NCBI GenBank assembly: GCA_012295275.1 | Contig: CM022679.1 | Coordinates: 3,100,001 to 3,164,000 of the forward strand | Reading direction: 5' to 3' | DNA: 64,000 nt | From: Chrysomallon squamiferum | Taxonomy: Eukaryota > Animalia > Mollusca | Shown: one piece after another, positions 6,116 through 34,868 of the stretch | How the letters are laid out: each line of letters begins with the position of its first letter | Position numbering within the stretch: the first letter of the stretch is position 1 | Program-made: the position numbers and the translations under genes | Notes under the pieces: generated by a model | The model's input: the letters and a program-made list of their open reading frames with translations, nothing else | Told to the model about the DNA's origin: nothing | Databases searched by the model: none

Positions 6116-7176
6116 CAGTAATATTTTATTGAAGGAATTAGTTTTAAACTAAGTCCGCATTTCGAGTGTCTGTCTCTTTCTCTCAGTAAAAACAGCAGAA
6201 GCAGGTGTCCGTTGCTATGCCGATATGAAATGAACAGTCAATGGAGACTGGCGCACTTTAAAGGTATCGTCTCTTTAATACCAGTTTCTAACCTTATGTT
6301 ACCAAATATTGCAACCAAAAGTGCGAACAAAAATCCAAACGCAACTGCTACTGCAGTATAACTGAGTTCGTATTCGCCAGTCGTGCTGGAAACCATCGGA
6401 TTTTGACCAGCCATACATCCAATAAAAACAGCTAAAAAAGTTCCCGAGAACTCTGCCAAACACGGCTGCACTGTTGCTTCGAATCTCCGTATGGCTATTT
6501 CATCTCTCAGCTTATAGAACTGTTCTGCCATGGCGTCCATTTTGATTAAATTGTATGTTGGATGAACTGCAGTTACCAAAACACTTATAATTTTATATGT
6601 ATAAATAAATGAATGAAGGCCGTTATGTTTACTTCGTCCGTGATTACGTCACTGTATTCGCAAAATTACGTCATATGCCAAAACACAATATATATATTAA
6701 AAACCCTTTCTACAGGGTACACAGATAATACTTTATTAAATATCATAAATAACCAAAGAGACAGGTACGACAGAGCAAAAGAGATACCCAGAACCTATAT
6801 ATATATATATATAATTTTATGTAAAACGGCAACCAATTATTCAAAAGTAAATAAATAAATAAATAAACAGAAAAAAATTAGATTGATGCTTAACTAACCT
6901 CAAAGCATTCATCGAAATGATTAACAAAGCAATGGTAAACCCATGTGCCACAGCCACAGCCGATGTATTGGGCACGTGTATCTTCGAATCTGGAACTAGC
7001 GGGTCTTGAACCGACATACACCCGATAAAGACAAACAAACATGTCCCTAGAAACTCTGCTACGCATGGCTGAACAACTGAGTCAAATCTTTGCCCAGCTG
7101 TGTTGCCGAAATCTTCTGCCCCCATTCGATTGATGAGGGGTTCATCTTCTTTTCCCATATTACTTGTATTATCCAT
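4190..7176 (-). CDS. AQP8: Aquaporin-8/TIP-like MIP channel, gene A, isoform with distal first exon 1a (~271 aa)
   Basis: Phase-consistent GT-AG exons: 7176-6899 (MDNTS...[17 protein letters not shown]...AVAHGF), 5921-5795 (SGGHFNPA), 5304-5090 (GPAQGILAE...[12 protein letters not shown]), 4736-4587 ([14 protein letters not shown]...HYVYWVGP), 4235-4190 ([15 protein letters not shown]). Two canonical NPA boxes and the AEF motif; AQP8-like AHG and ILAG-type signatures. The symbol denotes the family; orthology was not tested. Confidence 0.93.
6293..6540 (-). CDS. AQP8: Alternative first coding exon 1b of aquaporin gene A (gives ~261-aa isoform 6540-4190)
   Basis: Intact paralogous TM1-TM2 exon: [45 protein letters not shown]...[20 protein letters not shown]. 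Ends AG|GTTAGA in phase 2 exactly like exon 1a, so it splices in frame to exon 2 (5921). TATAAAA lies ~50-57 nt upstream of the ATG. Confidence 0.85.
6591..6673 (-). promoter_or_regulatory. Putative promoter of aquaporin A exon 1b (TATA-like box + two TTACGTCA bZIP sites)
   Basis: TATAAAA on the minus strand at ~6597-6591; TTACGTCA at 6644-6651 and 6666-6673. Confidence 0.45.
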
Positions 7177-7379
7177 TATGCTTGTTTAATGTGCTTCAGC
7201 TGATGTTCGTTTTCTTCCTTTTCCTATTAATAAAATAAGCAATATGACAATACCTGCCTGTGATATGTGACCTTCTAAGTCATGTGATCGTTAAAAAATA
7301 ATATAATTATGCTAGTGGCGCGCAGTGCGGTTGGCAAAAACATTGTAAAAGCTACATCAGTGGGTACAAAAAGAACAAC

Positions 7380-7700
7380 ATAAGGCCGTTGGATCTGAAT
7401 TAAATAATGACGTCATTTAAATACGTCAGATTAAGCTCTAAAAGGGATCTAAAATAAAATAAATGATTAATTATAACTTAGTAATTAAAGCTGCAGTACA
7501 ATTTCTTTATATCAGAGGGGTGTTTAGTTAGCTAGAGAAATGAGTGAAACGATTTACTAGATAAGATTTCGTTAATCCGGCTGCGTTTTCATGTACGATT
7601 ACGTCAACGATTCGAAACGATTTCACGCGTTTTCCAGTTTGTCTTTTAGTAGCATGGACCAACAGGAACGATAACTCGTAACGGCACAAATTACGTCAGC
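7380..7700. promoter_or_regulatory. CpG-containing upstream region of aquaporin A exon 1a with CRE/ATF-like sites
   Basis: Perfect CRE TGACGTCA at 7408-7415; TTACGTCA at 7599-7606 and 7691-7698. Confidence 0.4.
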
Positions 7701-9690
7701 GGAAAAAATGCCCTTCAGAGTTCCGCCGATTTAATGGGTGCAAACTTCACCTGAATATTCTTTTCTGTTGGGTTCTGATACGGTGAATATTGCCAATTAG
7801 AAAAGTTAATACATTAATCTTATACCGATTTATAATTTTAGTTCACTATGCACGCATTTGCATAAAAATCGTCCAGTTTAAAAAGTTTGATTAAGTTGAA
7901 AAAGGCGCAGGATTTTATGGTTTGATAATATGAACAACCGTCCTTATCTGTATCAGCGTAAATCATAAGAAGTTCAGAAAATAGACGTAAAACAATTGAA
8001 TTTGGAAGTTTAAAAACCTCCGTGAAGCACAAACTTTTAAACACGTATTGCTTCATAACGTAATCAGTTCGACAAGGATTATTAAAAGTACTTTGTGGAA
8101 ATACGTCATTTAATCAATGCCTCGTATACACAGATGTCTATTGTGGAGTAGAAATTGCTGCAAAGATCGAAACCTTTTTTTTGGGTGGGGGTTAACTGAC
8201 GTAGAACCACCTTGTACCCGTTGCGTATTATTTTTTTCCAGATATTACTACGACGTCGCCAGCCAAAAAAAACAAAAAAAAACAACAACAAACAAACAAC
8301 AAAACAAAAACAAAAACAACAAAAAAAAAAAAAATAAATAAATAAATAAATAAAATAAAATAAAATAAAATAAATAATTTTCACAGACACAGGCGCATGA
8401 ATATGAAGATGACTATTCTCATTAGATACAATGTGAACATGTTACTCTGCTAAAACTCCATAGCGGACACTTCTGAGTACGTAGTTGTAAAACAATACTT
8501 GAAACCATTATAATTCTTTATATATATAAAATATTTATTCCCATTTTCAATGCATTAGAGGTAGTATTTACATGTAAAAAGCAAATTGATCAGGTGGTAT
8601 TTGAATGATTGTCTTGATATATTCATTATAATGCTTGATACCAGTTTTACAATGGAAAACAAAAACAAAAATTTAAAGGTCCGTCAACCGGCCGAATAAT
8701 AAATATAATTTTTCACTCTTTTTCGTTAAACCAAAAAGCATTCAACTTCTAAAACATGTACTATTATGTATGCAAACAATGAATTCCTATTTTTATTTTT
8801 AAAAACATCATTGGTCCTTGCTACTTTTAGTTTCCCCATTTTTAATTTTTTTATTTCCTAAGCAAGTATTATCACAACCCCAATATACTTCATCAACAGC
8901 TATAAAAAAAAAAAAAAATAAAAATAAAAAATAAAAAATAAAATAAAAATAAAAATACAAACATGCCCGGTAGCATACGTTAACACTGAAAGATCACTTA
9001 ATAGTTTTTCATTCATTTATTAATTTATATAAAACACACATTTATCTATACATCGAGTAAGCTGAGAATAACAGATTTATGGACCAACTTTCGATGGGCT
9101 ATTCAAACAGACAGGTGTAGTTTGTCTGTTTATAACAATAACTAATAATAATGAAAATAATAATAATAATAATACACTGATTTGGTGTAATTAAAGGTGC
9201 AAATAAAAATGTACAATGCACATGCTGAACGTGCACATGTAAAATCGAAGCAGTTACAAACTGGACAAATGCAAAGTCATGAATTGATTTACTTAGAATA
9301 AATCATTTAGTAATTTTGATTATTTTGATTATATTATTATTATTATTATTTTAAAATGATGAATCAGTACACACACACACACACACACACACAAAAAAAA
9401 AATAATAAAAAAATAAAATAAAATAAACACAAAAAAAAGGAGAAAGGACAAAAACATAAACGCCCCTTCTACCAAAAAAGCTAGTTTAACATATATTTTT
9501 TTAATGTATTAAGTACATTACATAAGTCATAATATCACAAATATAAGATTAAACTTATTTAGAGTATTTGAAACGGGGCGCTGAAAAATAAAACATTAAG
9601 ATGCTAAAATCGTGTCATTTTAAAGAAAACAGTTAAAATATTAATTGAATTAAATTTTTATAAGAAAAATATTAAAACAGACTGGAAATA

Positions 9691-10469: not shown

Positions 10470-11080
10470 ATCGCAGTTATGTGAATATTCTGTACACTTC
10501 AGGCAACAGTGGTTGTGTGAATATTCTGTACACTTCAGGTAACAGTGGTTGTGTGAATACTCTGTACACTTCAGGTAACAGTGGTTGTGTGAATATTCTG
10601 TACACTTCAGGCTAACAGTGGTTGTGTGAATACTCCAGGCAAATAGCGTTTGTGGGAATATTCTGTCCTCGGACATTACACATTTTGTATGAATATTTGG
10701 TACATTTCAGACATTACAGCCTTTGGAGTGCATATTCTGTATATCTTAAACATTACAGTAACTGTGAATATTCTGTTTACTTCAGACATTACAGTATTTG
10801 TGTGAATATTCTGTACATTTCAGACATTACAGTATTTGTGTGAATATTCTATACATTTCAGACATTACAGTATTTGTGTGAATATTCTGTACAGTTGAGA
10901 CATTACAGTATTTGTGTGAATATTCTGTTTACTTCAGACATTACAGTCTTTATGTGAATATTCTGTACATTTCAGACATTACAATAACTGTGTGAATATT
11001 CTGTACACGTCAGACATTACAGTATTTTTGTGAAAATCTTATACATTTCAGACATTACAGTTTTGTGTGAATATATTAAA
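10470..11080. repeat. Minisatellite, 36-38 bp unit (GTGTGAATATTCTGTACAYTTCAG...ACAGT), roughly 16 copies
   Basis: Directly visible tandem units in two sub-variants (..CAGGTAACAGTGGTT.. then ..CAGACATTACAGTATTT..); ends ~85 bp before the gene B ATG. Confidence 0.9.
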
Positions 11081-11164: not shown

Positions 11165-12785
11165 ATGATTGAGAAATTCAAAGAATTATCCCTTAACGGA
11201 GAAGAATTGACTTTGAAAAATATATTTGAAGACTTCGTTCGACCATGCATGGCTGAATTTGTGGGCACGTGTTTGTTTGTTTTCATTGGCTGTATGGCCA
11301 TTCCACATTCTATGGCGGGGAATTTACACCCTGCCTTGGCGGCCACGCCTATAGCTTTGTCTCATGGGCTCTTAATAGCTTCTCTAGTAATTTCATTTGG
11401 AAAGGTGAGGTAAGTTTTAATTAATTCAGATCAGTCTGACCAAAGAACGTCTGTTTCTGTCTAAATGACTGTAAGGATAATATAATTTTAATTTACCATG
11501 ATTAAGCAAAATTAATAATTCTTTTCTATCTTAAACAATAACTGTTAAAAAACAAAAACAAACAAGCAAAAAAAAAAAAAAAAAAAAACCCAACTAAACA
11601 AACAACAACAAAATAAAAATAAAAATAAAAATAAAAATAAAAATAAAATAAAATAAAATAAAGGTAAAAAAAAAAGAAGAAAGGTAATGAATTAGAAATA
11701 TATATACATTTAACATATAGAAAAAAATTAAATAAATACATAAACAAACAAACAACTGCAACAATTAAAAAAAATATATATATATTACCCCCCCAAAAAA
11801 TCCTTAAAAAATCCAACGAAAACAATAGGATTGCACAAAAAAAGATTGGGGAAACGTTTGGAATACGAAATAGTCGTCATCATGGTAAATCTTTCTAACG
11901 TAAGCTTATATTTTGATACTAATTTTAAATAACATTGGAGAATGGAGAAAATAAGATAAACTTTCACTCTAAAATACTGACACTGACAAATTACGGACTA
12001 TGACGGAAATACAGTCATTTGCGTCACTGCTTTTTCATATGCTTAATCTCTCAGTAAATCTACATATATCGTGTATTAATTTTTTTTTCTTTTCACTTTG
12101 TGCGTATATGTATGAGAGTGCGTGTGTGTTTGTTGAACATTTCTGTTCATTTGTTTTCATTATCAATAATTTTGTTATTGTAATCATTATTTGATGTTGC
12201 TAACATTAAACATTTTTTATTATTCCTCGTTAGTTTCTTAAATATAGTAACGTACTTAACACAGCGTTTAAATATACCATCATTTTCAGAGGGAGAGAGA
12301 GAAATAGAATTTATTTAATGCTACAATCAAATATTAATCTTATATGCGAGTGTATGTATGTATGTGTATGTGTATGCATGTATTTATGTGCATATGTATG
12401 TATGTGTGTGTGTAGAGTAAGTGAACTAAAGACATAAACATATATATATCTTTAATGCTACTACGTCCACAAACATACATACAAACTAGGATTAATGCAT
12501 AATTATTTGCCTGCAGTGGCGGTCACTTCAATCCTGCCATTACGCTGGGGGTTGCTTTGTCTGGTCACATTACAACGCCCCTAGCGTCGTTCTACGTCAT
12601 CATGCAGCTGACCGGGGCACTGCTGGGAGCTGTGCTGTGCAAGGTACAATTAGTTTTATATTTTTAATATTTGTTTTATTTATGTGTTTATAACGTGAAC
12701 CCCTCAAAAAAAAAAAAAACCCAGTAAAATTTACTACACACACATTCACTAATCATTCAAGTGCACATACATAAGTATGTATGTT

Positions 12786-12823
<38 letters not shown>

Positions 12824-14422
12824 CACACACACACAAACAACAATATGAAAAACTAAAATTAACTATACAAATTAAAAAACAAAAAAAAAAAAAAAAAAAA
12901 AAATGTATTTTACCTTCTTTTGTCTTTTTGTAATATGCTCAGAACTGATTTGACATCAACCAGTATTTATAACGTATCTACTTGTGTTCATCAACATTAC
13001 AATCATCATCAAATAAACAACAACTCTATTACGCTTGCATCAGGTGGTGGAGGGAACATCTCTGTACACGTCGCTAAACGGCGGGGCCCACATTTTGCCG
13101 CATGGAATAACACCTGCGCAAGGTATTTTATGTGAGATGCTGTTGACGACGGTGCTGGTTCTGACAGTGATTCTCAGTACCTGTGATGAACGTACTAAAT
13201 CAGGACGAGCCCCACTCGGTATAGGATTCTGTGTGCTCATCGACATCTTAGCAGGGTAATGAATATTCATTAGCTTAACGTTATCTAAATTTATTTCCAT
13301 CTGAATCATTATTTGACGCAAATAATGAATATTCATTAGTTTAACGTTATATAAACATATTTCTGTCTGGATCATTATTTCACGCAAATAATTTCTTTCT
13401 GTCTGAATCATTATTTGAGGTAAAGGTCATATGGACATAGAATGCAGAACAAGTAAACAAAGAGATAAAGAATTGCACTGTCTGTGAAAGGTAACCCACT
13501 GTAGCAGCTATAACCTGGGTTACACTTATCAGATACCAGGATGGTACATTTTTGACATTATCGAAGGCAGGCCATGTATTTTGATAGACCAGTCGTTTCT
13601 CTATGGTATGAGAAATACAGTTCCTGAGATTAATCACAGGAGTGCTTTACAGTCTGTCTGTCTGTACCCCTCTCTCTCTCTCTTTCTGGTAAAGGAACAA
13701 ACAAACAAACAAATAAATGTAAAAATAAATTAAACACACACACAAACACAGTCAAAAAAAAAAAACCAATTAAAAAAAAAAAAAAAAAAATTAAAGAAAA
13801 AGAAAAAAGAAAGAAAGAAAGAAAGAAAGAAAAAATACATGTTCTGTCCATTACAGCAATTTATCAACTTAACGTTTTTTTTATTTATGTACACGACTGT
13901 TAATGTGAAATGTTATTTATATGCGTAGTCAGCGCTACGATGACTTGTAAAGGAAGTAACAGTAGAATATTGTAACTCGTGTCGCACGTACAAAAAAACC
14001 CCCAGTAAAAAAAAAAAAAAAAAAAAAAATTATGAAGATGGAACCCTATGTACATATCGTTTGTCATACTTTATAATTGGTAAAACCTGGTTGTTTTAAA
14101 ATGTATATCCATATCCTGGAAACGTATAAGATGTTTTAGTCCAGGTTTTATCTTGTGTAGGATATTCTTTTTGCTTTTCATTTATTCATTCACTCAGACT
14201 TACTTTGTTTCAAGGATAAGGACAAGTGGAGCGTCAATGAATCCTGCTAGAAGTTTTGGTCCGGCGGTGATACTAAGTGCTTACAACAGCGAGGTGTGGA
14301 CCTACCACTACGTTTACTGGCTGGGCCCTCTTTTGGGTTCGGTTTTTGCCGCCATTATGTACAGGTAAATATCTAGCTATCTGTCTATGAACAACTATAA
14401 ATAAATATGTGTACTTAGAAAG

Positions 14423-14458
<36 letters not shown>

Positions 14459-14473
14459 AGAAACACACAGAGG

Positions 14474-14541
<68 letters not shown>

Positions 14542-14675
14542 TAAATTATAAAATATATATTGGTATATAAAAAAAGAAATCTTCATGATATCTTCAAATA
14601 AAATAATAATAATAATATAATAATAATAATAATAATAAAAAGATGAACATTAACTTAACATTTAAAACAAACAAA

Positions 14676-14710
<35 letters not shown>

Positions 14711-15251
14711 AATAATGTAAATTAAAATAAAATAATAAAGTAATATCTAATTTTGTGAAAATTTCTGTAAGCATCAATGGCATTTCCTAATCACTTATTT
14801 TCCCTCCTTCCACTGTTTTACAGAATGATATTATTTTGGCCCCCACAATAGTGAAAATAGTACATTTTCAATTCTTACAACAAAAAAAACCTTCAACATT
14901 CGTACCACCTTTCTGAACCACTAGCGGCACACAACAGAATGTCAGCCATATTTTAGGTGCTTCTCGCCCGGTAATCCTGCCAAGATTCAATCCATCAAAG
15001 TGAAATTAATAATAATCCTTGCTTGTTTCTTTCCGGCACTTGCTCGATCTTCCCAAATAATGCACAGGTTCACAAATGATCTAAATTAAATTATCAGACG
15101 ACAATATTTTGTTTGCAGGGCATTTTTAGCCAATCACAACAAGCGTCTTTTCATGAAACAGGAAGTACCTGAAGTATCAATTCAAACAGAATCAAAAATA
15201 CCAAATGTTTGGTTGGTCGAAATGTCCAATGACAAAACTGTAGATGATTAG
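11165..15251 (+). CDS. AQP8: Aquaporin-8/TIP-like MIP channel, gene B (~288 aa with last exon 5a)
   Basis: Exons 11165-11409 ([17 protein letters not shown]...ALSHGL), 12517-12643 (SGGHFNPA; absent from ORF track), 13044-13255 (TPAQGILCE...[12 protein letters not shown]), 14215-14364 ([14 protein letters not shown]), 15119-15251 ([15 protein letters not shown]...VDD*). Same intron positions and phases (2,0,2,2) as gene A; exons 2 and 4 are 127 and 150 nt in both genes. Confidence 0.92.
13256..13415. repeat. ~66 bp tandem duplication (about 2.4 copies) starting at the gene B exon 3 donor
   Basis: TAATGAATATTCATTAG.TTAACGTTAT...TCATTATTT.ACGCAAA occurs twice, followed by a partial copy. Confidence 0.75.
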
Positions 15252-15651
15252 TTTTATCGTAAAAGAATAGGGTGAATTAAAAATGATATATATACTCACA
15301 TTTAAAATTAGTTTTCAAAATTTATTTATTTTTTCATTTCATTAAATTTTGATCATTATTTTATCATTTATTTTATACTCCTTGACTGGCATGTTTTGAC
15401 GTTTCTGATGCATGTAAAATCCCCATCTACACTGTCATACAATTTAAAAAAATATAAAAATAAAATAAAATTAATAAAATAAAAAATAAAATAAAACAGA
15501 ATAAAATAAAATAAAAAAGAAAAGAACATTAATATGCAAATAAATAAAATTTTATGGACTGGGACGACAAACTTCAAATTGTGAAATAGTATACCTAGAA
15601 TAACAATTGATAGAAACTTTTTTAATGATTATACTTGTAATTATTTTTCAG

Positions 15652-18348: not shown

Positions 18349-21300
18349 ACTCAAATGCACACAAACATGAACATGCTCTTCCCAGTTTGATTCTCCTACC
18401 TCTCTGTATCAGTGTCCAGGTTTGAAACTGACTGAATGATGTCCAGTACTTTGTTCTTGTTGTCTTTCACTAACATGGAAGCTCTGTGGGCCTTCAATGC
18501 ACGTTGCACTTCAACAACTGGATCTTCAAACAGAAACCAAACATTACACATTCAAGTTTTATCTAATTATATTATTTGAATACAGTGAAGTAAAATATGA
18601 AACAAAGAAACAATAACAAATTATATATATATATATAAATATACATAAAACCATTGACAGAGAGAGAGAGAGCGCCATTCAGAACTGAAAACACAGAACA
18701 CATATGCAGAAAATACCTTTGTTGCAGATTAATATGTAATCAAAGCCTCAGATTTCATTTCTGCAGAAAGATGTCACTGAAAATACCACAGTACATTATT
18801 AACGTATTTCATTATCACATATACTTTTTTTTTACCTTCCTCATTGTCATCATCACTGTCATCACTATCGTCAGTGTCATCATCACTTTCATCATCATCA
18901 TCTGAACTATCTGAATCTGAATCATCAATCTTTACGGGAACACCATCAATTATGACAATACCATCAGCCGCTAAGTCATAATCTTCTTCTGCTATGTAAG
19001 CATGCGCTGCAACATTGGCTGCAACAGTGGCATCACTTTGATACACTGGAAGTTGGTATCCTGAAACCCCTCCAGCTCCTTTGTTTGAAGGAGGTTTCTC
19101 TGTTGGAGGATTTGCCATGAGAGCCCGAACTGAAGGAGCCTCCACCGAAGGAGGTTTCTCTGTAGCAGGAGCAGGTTCTACTTGTAATGATTTTTTCTTC
19201 TCTGGTGCAGAGCTTTTTTCATATGATTTTCTCCTGACTCTATAGAACAAAATGTTAAAAACCGTCTGGTAATTAAGGTAAAACAATGATTTTAGAAATA
19301 AAAAATTTGTTTAAAATGGCACACACTGTGTGACAAATAAATATTTTATTTTATTTGTCCCTAATTCATCTTATTTAAAAAATATACTATAATGCACACA
19401 CACACACAAAATAATAATAAAATTATTAAAAATAAAATAATATTTTGTTAATGTTTTGGTTATATTTCCCACCATCTGAGATTTAACATTTAATCATGAA
19501 CAATAAAATGGATACAGTTAAACAGTTTGTTTAGTTGCCTCATTTTTCTTTAATTAGCCTAGGTGCGACTAAGTACAAAACAAATACTTACATAATAATT
19601 CTACAGACTCCACAGAGAAGAATGATGACTAAAATGACAGTGACTATCACTATACCAATATCCGTGTCATCAAGTTCCAATACTGCTGCACAGAAAAACA
19701 TGTACATTAGGAAGGTAAAAAAACACATTATAGACATAATCAGAAAACCCCCATTAATTTAGTTCTTTTCACTGATATTTGGTATATATAGAACAAAAAA
19801 AAAAAAAAAAAACCAACAACAATGTTTATAAAAAAAAAAAAAGCTGAATAAATGAAAAAAATGAATTAATATTATAAACAGAACCAGTCTGTTTTTCTTA
19901 TTTCTTTTGTGATCTGATTACCTAATTTGGAAGTGTGTCTCCAAATGGCGAATGTTTTTATCATGATAAGATGTCCATTCTTGTTCACTGCACAGCCATA
20001 GAAACCGTCAGAATGTTTTTCAGGTACGAGTTTTATTGCACTTTCATTTCGACGTCCAGGGAGCTATCTCAGAGAAACATAAAACTCGAATAAAGAAGAC
20101 TGTTCGGTTAAACAAACACTCCTTTATTAAAGGAGAGTTCTTACAGGGAGAGTATTTTCTATCTTATTTCAGAACAGAGGTAGGTCTCCTATATGATTAA
20201 TTCAGAAGACTTACCATCTGATCAGGAGTTTAATTAGTTTGGATAATTAGTAAAAGCTAAAAATATTTCACTGATACACTCTATCACACAAACACACACA
20301 TTCAGTCACACACAGAATTTACATATCAATGATTGAGGTGAATGTTCACAATTTAGAAAGGAAGATACACCTTATGTACATTTTATTTAATTAAAATTAC
20401 ACCACTTTTAAAAGAAATAACACCACTGATAGATAATTAATATCCACAAAACTCCATTCAGTTATCCATCTCTTTACAAAACAGAGGCTGAAGATATTAA
20501 TTAATAAAAAAAAAAAAAAAAAAAAAAAAAGAAACAGAAACCCTTGGAATGATAACAATTCCTGAATCAGCTGATAACAGTCTGTCATCTTTAAACCATT
20601 CAGTGAAGACATCATTACTGCCAAAATCAGTATAGTCACACTTTAAATACACAATATCTTCTGCATGTTCCAGTACTTCATCAAGATGAGCTGCAGAGAA
20701 TGGAAATTTCATATGTGTAAGTGTATGTACATGCAAAGAGACAGAATGAATTTTTTTTTAATTTAGGTTTGCTTTGCTGTCATATATAATTCACTGAACA
20801 TCTGTCACTGTATAAAATTTAAGCTTGGAATGCAACCAGAAAAAGTATTTGAAATGGGGCATTGGGAAATAAAAAATTAACAGGCTCTGATCTTTTTCAA
20901 TAACTATTTATTTTAATACAGAAATCAGATCATGATATGAAAATTTCATTAGCTAGTTTTATCATTATATATTTCTGATATAAACAAAAGTTATTACATT
21001 TTTTTATATAACATAAAGAATAATTTACCTGAGATGGTGTAGCCCATGGAATTCATATATCCATCATTATCAGTTTTATTATTATATTTCTGATATAAAT
21101 AAAAGTAATTACATTTTTATATAACATAAAGAATAATTTACCTGAGATGGTGTAGCCCATGGAATTCATATATCCATCATTATCAATGAGTGCTGCTCTC
21201 TTAAACGAAAACCTCTGTCCGTTGACAACCACAACATCAACAATGCCGCTGAAGCCGGACTTCACCCCAGTGGCAAACTGGATGATGAGCCACTCTGCAG

Positions 21301-24300
21301 GCTCAGTGTGGCCGAGGAAGAGCTCACCTACAGGAGAGTACTTCTTACCTAGCCCAGTGACCTGCATCGCTGGGTGTCGGTCCACCTGCAAGTCCACCTC
21401 CATCCCATTCACATCAGCTGTCAGGTAGAACCACTGGTTTAACTAGCAGCAAAAACAACAACACAATAAAGTAAAGAATGTGTAAGTGTGTATATGATTA
21501 TATATCTGCGTGTATATGATTATATATGTGTTGTATATGATTATATGTGTGTGTGTATGATTATATATGTGTATATGATTATATATGTGTGTGTATATAA
21601 TTATATGTGTGTGTATGATTATATATATGTGTATGTATATGATTATATATATATGTGCATGTATATGATTATATATATGTGTGTGTATATGATTATATGT
21701 GTGTGTATGATTATATATATCTGTGTGTATATGATCATATGTATCTGTGTGTATAAATGATCACATATATCTGTGTGTATATGATCACATATATCTGTGT
21801 GTATATGATTATATATACATGTGTGTGTAATGTTTACTTACTTGCAGTTCTATACTTTCCTCACACTCAGTTTTCAGTCCACAGTTGAGACACACTTTGA
21901 TTGATCCGTGGTCTACGAAGATTGCCAGGAAGGAACCAGGTTCTTTGCCCTCGTTGTAGAAGATGAGGCCGTCTAGTGCGTGTATCTGCATCGTCGCTTG
22001 AATCTGCAGGTGTTGTGTGTGCTCAAAGATAAGTTTGGCGAAGAAACGACCTCGGAATTCTGAATGGCTGACAGCTGGTCCTGGATGAATGAATGAATAA
22101 ATAAACAAATACAAAAATAAACAGAAATATTTGCATGAGGCATGACAGGCCACAGAATCAAACCTTCTGAGTGTGCTCTGCATAATATGAGTAGCCAAAA
22201 GCCCCACTTCAATTTCTGATTTCAAATTATCACTGCATTAAAAATAAAAAATAATAATCCTATTTCTGACATCATGTTTCTGAAAACTTGATATTAAAAT
22301 ATTCCGAGATAAATATTTACACAAATATTTAATCATTTCCGATTAATTAAGCTGTCACTGACCAAGTGAGGTTTCGATAATTGACTTCTGCTGGGATGGA
22401 GACCCAGGCCCCACCCAGTCCATTGACCGGATCAGATTGAGTGGTTTGTAGTTCTGTCTCAGTTCAGAGATTACACCTTTAAAACCTGAAAGAGAAAAAT
22501 AAATCAATCTCTAGTACACCATTATGTCAAACGTGCATTACAGGTGGCAAACCTGTTCTACAATTTTATTCAAGTCTGCTGACCTCATTTTGTTTTATTT
22601 ATATAAATTTCCTTCTATTCAAGGTGTATATGAAGTGGTATGAATAAAATTTAATAGCCTCAGTTTGTTTATTTATGTAAACTTGTTTTTAATTCAAGAA
22701 AGTTAAAATGTAATTAACATGTCCCAGTTTGTTTTGTTTGTATAAACTTCTCTATGAATGTTTTATGTGTGAAAACTTACACTGCTAAATGTCAACGTTT
22801 AAAAGCTCAGCTAATACAAATTTAATTTTAAATGCCATTCTGCCTCAAAAATGAAATCAACATAGGTTTATCTAGTTATTATGATGACATTTTCTGAAGA
22901 AATATTTCTATTATAGTAAACAATTTATAATGATTAAATATATTCTTTATTGATGAAATGTAAAAAATTCTTTCACTTTGGAATTATTTCTGTTGTTGTC
23001 AATAAATTAAAAAATTATTAAATCTTTTTTTTCTCCATAAAAATTAAAAAAATTCCCACAAATCTCGAAATAATTTCTGTTTTAAATCATTTACAATAAA
23101 GATTATTAAATCAGTTTTCATCAATAAAATGTAAAAATTCCCACACTTCCGAAATAATTTCTGTTTTAAATGATAGTAATAATTATTATTAAACAATTTT
23201 TTCAATAAAACACATAAATTTTCACACCTCTTGAATGATTTCTGTCTGTTCCGATGATCATCTCTGCATCAAAGTTGATGTCGTGATGAGGGTCACTGTC
23301 GTACTTCGCTATGGCGTGTCTGGTATCGTCCACTCTGATGTAGCCCTCTTTTGTAGTGACCCCAACCTGCAGGTCATGCCAGTGTCCAACCTTGTTAACA
23401 AAACAACTAACCATGTTTATGTATTTTCATATAAAAATTAACAAATAAATACTGCTGAAGTATTTTGTTCAAAATTTTCATAGATGTATTTATTAAAAAA
23501 TTAGCTTTATTTCATTTTAACTGCTTATGTTTATTTAAAGCATGTTTGTTTTAAAGGTAACAACAGTAGCAATACAATATTCTTTTGAGTAAAGAGTAAA
23601 GATTCTTTTATATGCTATTTTCCCAGAACACTGTTCTTAGTATTTTTGCTATTATTACTCATCTGAAATAAAATAAAAATTTAAAATAATTTATAACAAT
23701 TGCTATTAAATAATTTCTTTATCAGTAAAATGTGAAAATTCCCCCCACTTCTGAAATAATTCCTTTTGAAAAATAACAATTATCAAAAAAAAAAATTTCA
23801 CATTATTATTATTATTATTATTATTATTACTTGAAGTGTGAGATTTGCTACAACGTGTAAATTAGATTTCCCATCATGCACTCTGAGGTTTGGTATTCCG
23901 TCTTCCAGACTGAGGGTTATGTGATGTTCACACTGCGACTCTTCTGTGCAGTTGTCGTATCGCTCGGCCAAAACACCACTGCTAGCCCTCGGCTGCAGTC
24001 GCAGGTAGAGAAGAAGAAACCTGGTTGGTCGCATGAACTGCTTGTAGATCATCCAGCTGTTCCCAGAGAATGTTATCCCTTTGTCGTTCTCATCTGTGGG
24101 GTAGACAAATCACTCGCAAATCAGAACTGTGACATCTCAACATAGTTTGATAGGTATTAATACAGTAATATTAACAGTTGTTAAGTTTACAACATATAAT
24201 TTATATCATTTAGCAGGAAGTGAACCTTTATATTCACCTTCCCATGAAAAAACCCCACATGAAAGCAGATAATGTTGTTTTTGGTGAACCGGACATGGAG

Positions 24301-29094: not shown

Positions 29095-30054
29095 AAGGAC
29101 AGTTAAATATACTATATAATTAAAAAATTTTAAACATTATTTTAATTTTTTTTTTAAATATATTACTATCTGGCCAGACAATATTTGTTAATTTATTTTA
29201 TAAGTTACATTTCAGTTTATTGGTATTTAAATTGTACAATCAGTAGAAAATTCATTTATGATGTTAACAATTTGTATTTTATGTGCAAGAAATTTAAAAA
29301 CTCCTAAAACCCCAAACAACAATGAACCCACACCCTATATACCCAACAAACCTGGAAAGCCTAAAAGCAGTTTTCTAGTCTCATTAATATTTTACAGTAA
29401 AATCCCAGTTTCTATAAGTTATGTTTCTTACTACTAAAACATAAATTTTAAAATATATTTTTAGATAATAAAATTCAAAATAAATACAGACAAAAATAAC
29501 GACTGATTTAAATAATAATTACATAAATTATAGTTTTAATTTTATTTCAGTTAATTTTGAAATAACAATTTTCTGACTTATGACATTTTAATTTGATAAT
29601 ATTTTTCATAATGTTTCAGAAATTATTAATTTCATGTATAACACCAAACATTTCATATATAAAAGAGTACAATATTTGATTTTTATTTAACATTTTTTTA
29701 TAAACTACTTTCTATAAGTTTTATATTATGTGTCAAAACTGCTCTAAATATTTTGTTTCAAATGTTAATTACATTCTGGGCGGTCACAACTGATTCCAAA
29801 GCAGCTTTCTGACTCGTAGTATTTTCCGTCACAAACGACCCCCCCATGTGCTGGTTTCGGATCATCGCATCGTCGAGTTCGGTCACGTCTGCCATAGCCA
29901 CACTTTTTATTACACTCTGACCATGGCGTCCATTTACTCCACCCACCATCAACTGTTTTAAAATTGTTATACAGATTATGTGAGGAAAAATGGACATAAT
30001 AATAAAAATTAAATATATACAATGAAAAAAAAAAAATGAAAAAAAAAGAGATGA

Positions 30055-30095
<41 letters not shown>

Positions 30096-31786
30096 TAATT
30101 TAGTAGACAAATGAATAATAAATATAAAATAAACCAATAAATAAATAAATAAACCAATAAATTATAACTATAAAATAAGTAACTGAATAAGTAAAAAATA
30201 TAAAACAATTAAAAAAAATATATATTTTAAAATAAGTGAATAAAAAAAAAAAAGAATAAATAAATATAAAATAAATAAATAAATAAGAAAATAAATAAAT
30301 AAAAATAAATATTAACACCCCCCCCCACAAAATCATATGTCTATTAACTTGAAAACTGCAGCAATTTTAGGATTTGAAATCAATATTAAAGTCAAATTCA
30401 GATAAAAAAAAAAAAAAAAAAAAAAAAATCAATACAAGATTTATTTGTGTAACATGTGTTTTCAAAATGGAAGGTAAACTTACATCATACATGTGTTCAT
30501 TTGAAAAATGCAGCAATGTTAGAGTTTGAAATCAATATTAAAAATCTAATTCAGATTCAAATAATAATAATAATAATAATAAAAAATAAAAATTAAATTT
30601 CAAAATTTTAAAAATCTTACTGAACAGTTATTAAAATATCTAAATTTCTAAATTAATTTCTTAATGCATTTGAATTATATTTGAGAATGAAAGATCAGTA
30701 TCTGAATAATAAATGGAGATGGCCAAATATATAAAAGGTTTACATTGTGGAAGATGTTTACAAAATACCAAATTTCTTACATTTATATTTGTTGGGGATG
30801 TTACACACCAAGTATATTAAAAATCAAACTAAAGAATAGAGTTTATAATAAGACATTAAAAATCTATACATATAACACATCCAATATTTTCTTTAAATTT
30901 AAGGAACCATTGTACTAAATATATTATTTAAAATCTAACAAGACAATTAACTCCTTTAATTCATTTTTGAAAATGATTGTCGATGCTAATGGTAAGGGAG
31001 ATAAACATGATTGTCCATGCTAATGATAAGGGAGATAAACATGATTTTCCATGCTAATGATAAGGGAGATAAACATGATTTTCCATGCTAATAGTAAGGG
31101 AGATAATCATGAAATGAAGCGTTCATACTTGGGCAGGCTCGGTGATACTTGACACAAAGCAAACTGGACCAGTATCGATGCTGTAGAAAGAAAACTGTGT
31201 ATCATATCAAGTGTTCAGGTTAGTATATGTTGCATCCATGTATAATTAGTGTGTGCAAGCATTATGTGTGTGTGTGTGTGTGTGTGCATGAATATGTTTG
31301 AGTTTAAATGGTTATGTTTATCTATATTTTTCTCTCTCTCTATAAAACATTAAACTGGCTACAGTCTTAATCTAAAAGTTCTGAGTTCATTTTATTCATT
31401 TCAAGTAATATTACTTGGATTATTGAGAAGAAACACAATCTCTGAAGCTATTAATACTTTTTCTTTTCCCTACTGAAATAAATGTTATTATTATTATTGT
31501 TGTTATTGTGTTGTTTGTTATTATTTTTATTTTTATGATTATATAATCTTAATATTAACAGTAGAATTAAATGGATACCAGTCTCCTGCTGTCAAGGAAC
31601 TCACTAACTCTTTCAAAGTTGCAGTGATGTTTTATGCATTGTGTGTAAAGAACTGGTACTTTAGCATGGATGTTATTCAGGTACTCCTGTGATTCTTCAA
31701 GTCCATTGTTATGAGTGTCTGAAACCATCAAAAATTATATTAAAATATTTAAATGTAACTGTTTTTGTGTATATCAGTTATATATC

Positions 31787-31840
<54 letters not shown>

Positions 31841-31995
31841 TCTATACATATATACACACATTTCTGCAGTTCTTAAAATGTATAAAATTAGCTTTTGTCG
31901 AAGGAAGAGAAATAGCAAATGAAGTAAAAAAGTAAGTGAAATAAATAAATAAATAAATAATAAAAATATGTATAAATAAATAAAAAATATGAATA

Positions 31996-32035
<40 letters not shown>

Positions 32036-32766
32036 CAAAATAAAATAATAAATAAAACATAATTAAAAAAAAAAACCCCCAAAACCCCAAACAACAACAA
32101 CAAATAAATAAATAAACAAATTAACAAAAAAATACTTTTATTTCAGTGATAAAACAAAAGCCAAGGTCAGTGTGAACTTGCCTACTTTTCACTAAACTCG
32201 ACAAAATCCTTCACATTTTCACTTCATTGAAATAACACAAAATAACAAAGTGACAACTAATATTTTCAAATCAGCAGCTGTCTGTTATTTAAAATATTAT
32301 GAAGCAGTAGTCACAGAATTTATTGACAGTTTTATTTCTTGGATTACTCTCTCTGCTGTCACAAACACAGTGGTTGACAGATTTATTTCATTTTCATGAC
32401 ATGATTATTTTGAGCTGCTGCTTTAATTTTAATACAACTGATAATGTAACTCTGGTTTGCATCTATAGAAAAAAATTTGTCTAGAAATTGTGATATTAAT
32501 TATTTTATTTTTATATTAATGTTTAGTGCAAAGGTTACGGTGACTTGTCAGAAAAAAAGTCACAATTCAGGAAGTTCAGTATCTCTTGTTGCCGGAAAAA
32601 AATCAATCATCATTTAACATTTCGTGGTAATACTGAAGTTAAAATGCATTTACTTCTTCATATACATGAAAACACACTACTGAAAGCTCTATTAAAATAA
32701 ATATTTTTGATAGAAAAAATAAATATATATATATTGAATCGTATGTTTCTGTATGAAAGAGAAAGT

Positions 32767-32826
<60 letters not shown>

Positions 32827-34868
32827 AAGATAAAGAGATATATAGATAGAAAAATAAATCAGACTGCAAGAGTGTGAGTGAAAGGAAAAAAGAGAGACAG
32901 AAATAAAAAGAATGAGAGAAAGAAATAGAGACACAGAGACAGAGAGAGAATGTATGTGTGTTTGTGAGATGGAAAAAGAGAGATATTTTGTTGCACAATC
33001 ACTTTGCTTTTACCTTCACATTGTCCTATGCAGGTTCGTTTTGTCTGTTTAAGGCCACTGCATGATCTACCACCATATTTCGGTAACGGATTATTACACA
33101 GTCGAGTTCGGGTTTTATGTCCTTTTTCACCACATTCCGCATCACAAGATGTCCACTTTGACCACACGCTCCACCCACCATCAACTGAGAAAACAATTAT
33201 TATTTCATTACTTTTCATGTCATACATTTTATATAAAATGTTGTTACGATGAAATGGTAAGATAATGATTACGAAAACAGTTATAAATGTTTAATGTTAA
33301 AGTTTAACCATTCACATCAATGTAGCCTGAAGAGAGAGAGAGAGAGAGAAAGAGAGACACAAACATACATTAAAACAGTTAAGTAGTTGCATGATGTCCA
33401 CACAAAAGATGAATAAAACAAGAATTTTCTCAGAATCAGATACTTACTTGGGCATGTGCTGAGAGTTTTTTTGAAAACACATGCATAAATATTCCAAAAC
33501 CTGACCTGAAAAAAGTATTAAAAAAAAAAAAAAAAAGAAAAAAAGAATAAATTTCATTGGTCAGTTTTTCTTACTTTGCTATAATGTATGTGTGTGTGTG
33601 TGTGTGTGTGTGTTTATCTGTATACATATGCATGGTATGTACCGTATATACTTGTTTATAAGTCGAATTTTTGGGAGACTATATTAAGGTAATATTTTGG
33701 GGGTCAACTTATACATAGGTAATGCTTTTGTAGCTGTTGCTGAAGAGTCGCCATTTTGACTATTTTTTGCTACGGGATGCATCTAAAATAATCGCAGTCT
33801 TTCAGCGTTTCAAAAATATAATTTTATCGTATAAAAATTTTTGAAAAATTAAATAACAAAACCAAATATGAATGTAAAACATGATATTCTTCCGTTTAAT
33901 GACATAAAAATACATTTTAAAACAAGAAAACTGTCAGTACGGCATTATGCCTTATGGTGTCTTGCAATGATCTAGGAATGCAGACTTCTCTGCCAAATTG
34001 CACTAAATATCGGTCCTAATTTCATAAACAAAACTCACTTGTTTAATTGTAAAGAATTTGGTGAAATAATATTGCAATCGTCATTAATATCCACTACCGA
34101 CAAATTTTGTAAATCATAGAACGGCTAAATATAACGGTAAGTTAGGTCTCCATGTTAGACCTATTACATTAAAGAGATACTATTTATGATACATTTAGGC
34201 TATAGCTCGTGTAATACATGCATTTACGTTATTATGGTATGTTCGTGCAAGTTACAGCTCGTGCAAGTTATGTTACAGTAGGCGTACAATGTAGGCCTTC
34301 ATGCCACTGTCACACTGGTCTAAAAATAGTGACGGTGCCTGGAATCTACAGTCGACTTATACACAAGTAATACCTAAAATGACGCAATTTTTGGTCTTAA
34401 AATACACATCGACTTATACATAAGGTCGCCTTGTACACAAGTATATACGGTATGTATACACAAATATTTTATGTAAGTGCACTCTGTGTGTGTGTGTGTG
34501 TGTGTATGAATATGTGGTTTTGTGTAACAACCAGTTCTTCTTTGGTAATGCTGTCCCTGGTCCAGTGGAACAAAGAACTTTTGCCTCCTGAAAAAACTTG
34601 TGGGTGACAAAATTTCTTCTTCAGACAAACGTCTATAAATGATTTCCTGTCTTTTGGGGCCACGTACATCAGTGCTTGAAGCATGTGTCTCCACAGAGCC
34701 TTCGCATCTGAAATACATAACAATAACAATTACTGTTGTTAATTAAAATAATAATCTGACAACAATGATGATAATCATAATAATGTGCTTAACATAAATA
34801 ATGAGGATTATAATGTTAATGACAAGGATAATGATAATAAGGATGAAGATAATGTTGATGATGATGAT

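Follow-up and report, generated by a model that had tools for sequence, protein, structure and literature searches.

Alternative homologous first exons carry different selectivity-filter residues in an expressed aquaporin-8-like gene of Chrysomallon squamiferum

Introduction

Aquaporin selectivity is normally diversified through gene duplication. The best functional parallel to the gene described here is NKCC2 (SLC12A1), in which ion affinity is tuned by TM2 exons that are internal and not first exons. In Mytilus and oysters, whole-gene AQP8 duplicates have exchanged the helix-2 His of the ar/R selectivity filter for Pro or Thr, and their functions are uncharacterised (PMC12771848). Several isoforms, with tissue or trafficking differences, arise from single aquaporin genes in Anopheles (AgAQP1A/B; PMC3774814), barnacle (Aqp1/Aqp2; PMC5513457) and salmon louse (Glp1/Glp3; PMC8167128); as described, the variants alter the N- or C-terminal tails and no pore helix is swapped. 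Tandem-duplicated 5' coding exons that are used via alternative promoters, giving homologous N-termini, are a known type of event, and the word aquaporin is absent from the main text of the human survey that covers them (PMC8373072). An annelid aquaporin survey contains, in its available parts, no case of alternative pore-helix exons (PMC8700629). Our literature search, which covered mostly openly readable papers without their supplements, returned no paper on an aquaporin with duplicated pore-forming first exons or with isoforms that swap pore helices.

Here we analyse an AQP8-like gene in a 64,000-nucleotide stretch of the Chrysomallon squamiferum genome (contig CM022679.1, positions 3,100,001 to 3,164,000), referred to as the window, from whose first letter all coordinates are counted. 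The gene shares a duplicated 5' exon with the cases of PMC8373072 and differs from them in that the swapped part holds the selectivity-filter residue. Like the Anopheles, barnacle and louse genes it produces more than one isoform, but it exchanges pore helices. The bivalve duplicates are separate genes, whereas here alternative exons are used and two-thirds of the protein is held in common. We conclude that this expressed aquaporin with a duplicated first exon is real and that the type of event is known; the functions of the two forms are predicted.

Results and Discussion

Organisation of the gene

The AQP8-like gene lies on the minus strand and possesses two paralogous first exons, 1a and 1b, each encoding TM1 and TM2 (Table 1). 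Joined to exons 2–5, exon 1a gives an open frame of 271 amino acids and exon 1b one of 261. The initial annotation had proposed two intact first exons, each running from its own ATG to a phase-2 AG/GTTAG donor and feeding one downstream exon set, and the open frames together with the RNA contigs described below bear this out. The two exons are identical at 36 of 77 residues, and each alone exceeds the Pfam MIP cut-off of 25 bits (30.6 and 27.9 bits). The encoded proteins have a MIP domain, two NPA motifs and six helices. Their closest relatives are AQP8-like proteins, and the first NPA motif falls in a second exon of 127 nt, a length typical of oyster AQP8 genes (PMC8925068). A profile run against 2047 stop-free segments from the six frames of the window retrieved 1a, 1b and the first exon of a neighbouring paralogue and no third copy in this gene (next E 0.06).

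Table 1. Coordinates of the features of the AQP8-like locus
Feature	Coordinates	Strand	Description
First exon 1a, coding	7176-6899	-	278 nt; ATG to phase-2 AG/GTTAG donor; N-tail, TM1, loop A, TM2
First exon 1b, coding	6540-6293	-	248 nt; ATG to phase-2 AG/GTTAG donor; TM1, TM2
Exon 2, common to both forms	5921-5795	-	127 nt; first NPA motif and TM3
Exon 3, common to both forms	5304-5090	-	Loop C, TM4, TM5 with H5 Val
Exon 4, common to both forms	4736-4587	-	Second NPA, LE1 Ala, LE2 Arg, TM6
Exon 5, common to both forms	4235-4190	-	C-tail and stop; agrees with Gigantopelta C-terminus
Transcribed leader of 1a	7177-7377	-	Run X1 contig to 7377, X2 to 7303; longest contig end, not a mapped start site
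Unspliced RNA leader of 1b	6541-6673	-	Inside the 1a intron; X1 contig to 6673, X2 to 6633; no upstream ATG
Two CRE/ATF-like 8-mers	6644-6673	-	Upstream of 1b ATG; candidate 1b promoter
Three CRE/ATF-like 8-mers and one half-site	7408-7698	-	Upstream of 1a; candidate promoter
AQP8-like paralogue, separate and divergently oriented (predicted)	11165-15252	+	Exons 11165-11409, 12517-12643, 13044-13255, 14215-14364, 15119 to stop

Transcripts and the mode of exon choice

Contigs of three of four RNA runs (X1, X2 and X3), which belong to one study, and contigs of run X5, whose kind is unrecorded, were mapped on positions 6130–7480 only. In both X1 and X2, 1a and 1b lie on separate contigs. These contigs stop matching exactly at the donors 6899 and 6293, and the 28-letter loose end that follows is the start of exon 2, so that the junctions of both first exons with exon 2 are present in two of the three RNA runs. 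X3 covers 1a alone, from which the absence of 1b does not follow. Among the mapped contigs, two differences were seen in the 1a coding sequence, both silent, and none in that of 1b. Contig depth was 147.9 for 1a against 31.2 for 1b, and 25.2 against 5.8, placing 1b at about a fifth of 1a; such depth is a poor measure of level, and contigs of this kind show neither transcription starts nor expression levels.

No joint between 1a and 1b occurs among the contigs of X1–X3, and in X1 and X2 the contigs of either first exon have no loose end on the 5' side. The gene shows tandem exon duplication, with adjacent homologous 5' coding exons that are each spliced to one exon 2. Mutually exclusive splicing in the strict sense concerns internal exons behind a common upstream exon, an arrangement that is not found here, and N-terminal swaps fall outside it under the definition of PMC8373072. 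Exons 1a and 1b are therefore alternative first exons. Their mutual exclusivity, which the initial annotation had proposed, agrees with the RNA to the extent that the two are not joined; the mechanism is a different one, the 1b transcript continuing unspliced at its 5' side into the 1a intron. The proposal had rested on a frameshift that splicing from 1a to the nearest AG before 1b would cause. An acceptor at 6566 would indeed break the frame. Of 22 AGs examined from 6890 to 6433, however, 4 preserve it, and the pyrimidine tracts of these four (6–10 of 20) overlap the lowest value among true acceptors (10 of 20). Both arguments are weak, and we base exclusivity on the RNA contigs instead.

The choice between 1a and 1b is likely to be made by two promoters. 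Upstream of the two exons lie 8-mers that we take to be CRE/ATF-like elements: 5 of the 10 in the window are found there, two of these before 1b. Half-sites are likewise dense, with 6 of 36 in 6541–7760 and at most 3 in any equal span elsewhere in the window. These sites were spotted by eye before they were counted and so are a mere hint of two promoters. Compared as DNA, the regions upstream of 1a and 1b have one 11-mer in common and nothing further.

The filter residue and neighbouring pore positions

The filter codons can be read directly in the sequence: His78 of the 1a form is CAT at 6945–6943, and Phe68 of the 1b form is TTT at 6339–6337. This helix-2 site aligns with the ar/R Phe of AQP3, weakly (E 0.043) with 1b as query, and with that of AQP4 and AQP5 when X1 of Gigantopelta, described below, is the query; the His/Phe swap previously assigned to the filter is thereby supported. 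Since Val at H5, Ala at LE1 and Arg at LE2 are common to both forms, as read from the alignment, the filters are H-V-A-R for 1a and F-V-A-R for 1b, as had been proposed. In an alignment of 142 rows, which is redundant and includes fragments, the window's three proteins and a model from Owenia cut in two, the helix-2 site is His in 133 rows, Gln in 4, Asn in 3 and a gap in 1, with Phe in 1b only.

The substitution at the filter does not stand alone. In TM1, 128 of the 142 rows agree on Phe at a position where 1b has Ala; in TM2, four residues past Phe68, 1b has Phe where 127 rows have Ile. We take these sites to be the equivalents of the pore-lining Phe24 and Ile60 of AQP1; the literature search found no paper that confirms a pore-lining role for them. 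Judged from the residues themselves, the gain of a Phe in TM2 with the loss of one in TM1 looks compensatory.

Exon 1a resembles the aquaammoniaporins human AQP8 and Arabidopsis TIP2;1, and the mollusc AQP8-like proteins, in two NPA motifs, a helix-2 His, no helix-5 His, a small LE1, Arg and the 127-nt second exon, and its H-V-A-R has the form of an aquaammoniaporin filter. We do not place 1b in this class because the helix-2 His is replaced by Phe. The gene further departs from the class in its two first exons and apparently in loop C, for which Kirscht et al. describe an aromatic residue and where the gene would have Thr and not His or Phe; the corresponding residue is His in the Gigantopelta orthologue and in 81 of the 142 rows, in a column that was set by motif, not by structure.

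An acidic dileucine motif in the N-tail

Acidic dileucine motifs are adaptor-binding sorting signals. The motif [DE]xxxL[LI] is present at residues 10–15 of 1a and is missing from 1b. Of 132 homologous N-tails, 60 contain it, against 5.4 on average and never more than 13 in 1000 shuffles, so that 1a carries a conserved motif in a cytosolic tail, as a sorting signal of this type should be. Gigantopelta X1 has it too, and it is absent from Gigantopelta X2 and from Pomacea X1. The exon swap had been regarded as a change of filter, which it is; what had been overlooked is that the dileucine motif and two conserved helix residues are exchanged along with it.

Paired first exons in other species

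The closest named protein is an aquaporin-8-like protein of Gigantopelta aegis, identical at 133 of 179 residues in the common part. Its two annotated isoforms, X1 and X2 (XP_041363391 and XP_041363393), agree at 179 of 179 residues from the exon-2 boundary onwards and differ before it. The X1 first exon matches 1a at 54 of 82 residues and has His at the filter. X2 has Asn there and has the other two conserved helix sites changed to Leu and Val, so that it alters the same set of three positions as 1b. The likeness of 1b to X2 is 28 of 75 residues (37%), and to X1 it is 37 of 81. A predicted model of X2 is a complete aquaporin (pLDDT 91.4, pTM 0.88) whose top structure matches are aquaporins, with the qualification that the underlying alignment consists mostly of canonical proteins and that X2 is not the window's 1b.

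Seven further species with two isoforms were returned, five of which show homologous alternative first segments on an identical remainder. These are Haliotis asinina, H. rufescens, H. cracherodii, Patella vulgata and Pomacea canaliculata; in each the first segments are 71–90% alike and His is kept in both. The isoforms of Physella and Pecten do not have homologous alternative first segments. The gastropod pairs are like the window gene in setting TM1–TM2 alternatives on an identical C-terminal part, and they are RefSeq annotations known from proteins alone, not from genomic DNA. Among the pairs examined, the filter changes between paired exons in the window gene (His/Phe) and in Gigantopelta (His/Asn) only. 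Since neither exon has lost its His in five of the gastropod pairs, filter switching is not the cause of the layout. The initial annotation knew of no described case, and our literature search found no paper on one; the layout itself is annotated in Gigantopelta, three Haliotis species, Patella and Pomacea, whose isoform pairs are RefSeq entries that carry no remark on it.

In the Haliotis pairs, type-specific TM1 residues are kept across species and loop A is common within species, a pattern that, at the sequence level, resembles partial gene conversion. A protein of Owenia fusiformis (CAH1794531.1) contains two TM1–TM2 units in tandem, both with His, the second having Phe four residues past the His, as 1b does past its Phe68. 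It is likely a pair of alternative first exons fused by annotation, and annotators should be warned that this model appears to merge two such exons in one protein.

Age and constraint of exon 1b

Over 64 codons, 1a and 1b differ with pS 0.83, which is saturated, and pN 0.34, and the frame, the donor and the helix motifs are kept. Since synonymous sites are saturated while pN is only 0.34, 1b appears old and constrained. The end branches of 1b (1.22) and Gigantopelta X2 (3.53) in a tree of first exons are nevertheless long, and these branches, the low identity of the two and their differing filters fit relaxed constraint as well. Built on 63 columns and with 2 of its 29 branches starred, this tree cannot tell independent duplication from gene conversion; copies cluster by genus in it, and 1b and X2 are not paired.

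When 1b by itself was the query against longer proteins, none of 138 candidates obtained a score. A search of representatives gave 10 matches, namely the Owenia model, three long ones and six that were inspected; of the six, four are His-type first exons and two are repeat-rich chance matches. There is no close 1b-type relative among the matches examined. A count of changes on a tree of the common part was discarded as uninformative, because unlabelled rows do not mean negative.

Predicted functions and alternative explanations

The exon swap is likely to change channel selectivity, judging by analogy with published mutants. Of four single filter swaps in Arabidopsis TIP2;1, the helix-2 His-to-Phe exchange (H63F) alone lost ammonia complementation (PMC4814140), which was attributed to a clash that the loop C His brings about (PMC4814140; PMC5813003). 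This result makes a selectivity switch plausible, although it may not transfer to the window gene because Thr occupies the site aligned to that His. Other mutants point both ways. AQP1 H180I retains the helix-2 Phe and yet passes ammonia with little water (PMC4814140), and AQP4 H201A, which also bears the Phe, passes glycerol (PMC6937295); when the helix-2 Phe of AQP1 or AQP4 is changed alone, urea and glycerol flux are unaltered (PMC6937295). Having the helix-2 Phe, AQP1 H180I and AQP4 H201A are more apt comparisons for 1b than the W-V-A-R filter of NIPs offered by the initial annotation.

We assign a probability of about 0.6 to the reading in which one AQP8-like gene sets either of two duplicated first exons on a common body, giving two channels predicted to differ in pore chemistry and sorting. 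Tandem-duplicated first exons are spliced alternatively onto one body, likely from two promoters. Exon 1a would represent the ancestral type, passing ammonia and water, and its motif would route the protein to endosomal or lysosome-type membranes. Exon 1b would be derived and less abundant, with a more hydrophobic filter, likely a lower water flux and an altered flux of ammonia or small solutes; free of the dileucine motif, it would more likely be kept at the cell surface. Exon duplication recurs in gastropods, the second copy having diverged in its pore in the lineage of the window gene and in Gigantopelta. On balance we thus expect 1a to be an AQP8-type ammonia and water channel of internal membranes and 1b a more hydrophobic, surface-prone channel with probably less water flow. 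A further-reaching version, to which we would give somewhat less than even odds, holds that promoter choice swaps the sorting signal together with the TM1–TM2 pore wall, so that a channel for ammonia and H2O2 inside the cell becomes one of the cell surface with another solute range; that duplicated first exons are a recurrent lophotrochozoan AQP8 route to new selectivity without gene duplication; and that the forms can mix in tetramers.

The second exon might instead serve expression and trafficking, having its own promoter and no dileucine motif, with the pore changes as tolerated drift and the same solutes passed. The His/His pairs of five gastropods, the Pomacea pair that differs in the motif and not in the filter, and the unlike filter residues of the second exon in the window gene and in Gigantopelta would all fit, as would the copepod Glp N-terminal isoforms, which differ in tissue and trafficking (PMC8167128). 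Drift accords poorly with the alteration, in 1b and in Gigantopelta X2 likewise, of three positions as conserved as these, and the same His-to-Phe exchange had a phenotype in TIP2;1 (PMC4814140); we regard this explanation as unlikely, if the most serious of the competitors. Rather less likely still is that 1b yields a subunit which is closed or conducts poorly and so dampens 1a in mixed tetramers, or that it is a copy in decay whose transcription continues. Phe at the helix-2 site was suggested by Kirscht et al. to occlude the TIP2;1 pore (PMC4814140), and the long branches, the lower contig depth, poor measure though it is, and the want of a close 1b-type relative among the inspected representatives are in keeping with it. 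Against both versions, frame, donor and helix motifs are intact behind saturated synonymous sites, 1b is correctly spliced, and the paired Phe gain and loss may be compensatory. That 1a and 1b are an assembly artefact or alleles is largely refuted and very improbable: although no single X5 contig spans the whole mapped stretch, overlapping X5 pieces cover nearly all of it, the exons share fewer than half of their residues, both appear spliced to a single exon 2 within the same RNA runs, and the layout is annotated in other species too.

On the reading that we prefer, one gene would achieve here what bivalves do with whole-gene AQP8 duplicates. With 179 residues in common and differences confined to TM1–TM2 and the N-tail, the isoforms form a natural controlled pair for the helix-2 residue and its neighbours, and abalone, limpet and apple snail, whose pairs have His in both exons, supply natural controls. 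The pair lends itself to asking how these residues set the flux of ammonia, water and solutes through AQP8-type channels, a class that in molluscs is largely uncharacterised (PMC12771848).

The paralogue and neighbouring segments

The predicted paralogue has a single first exon with His, the filter H-I-A-R and a loop C His; it is identical to the window gene at 97 of 178 residues of the common part and is without the dileucine motif. The loop C Thr and the H5 Val (not Ile) of the window gene are carried by both isoforms through exon 3. Two further first exons of the His type, which resemble 1a and that of the paralogue, lie on ENA contigs of equal length (1,822,453) and suggest the same gene pair in another relative. 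A degenerate tandem repeat with units of about 30 bases lies at about 10490–11070, just upstream of the paralogue's first exon. Stop-free segments at 29768–33290 and 21812–22237, both on the minus strand, look by their sequence like parts of another gene, with repeats of the thrombospondin type 1 kind and an exon of the laminin-G-like kind. A 178-residue stop-free segment at 18777–19310 on the minus strand, Pro-rich and then acidic, is, by its sequence, likely an exon of a neighbouring gene.
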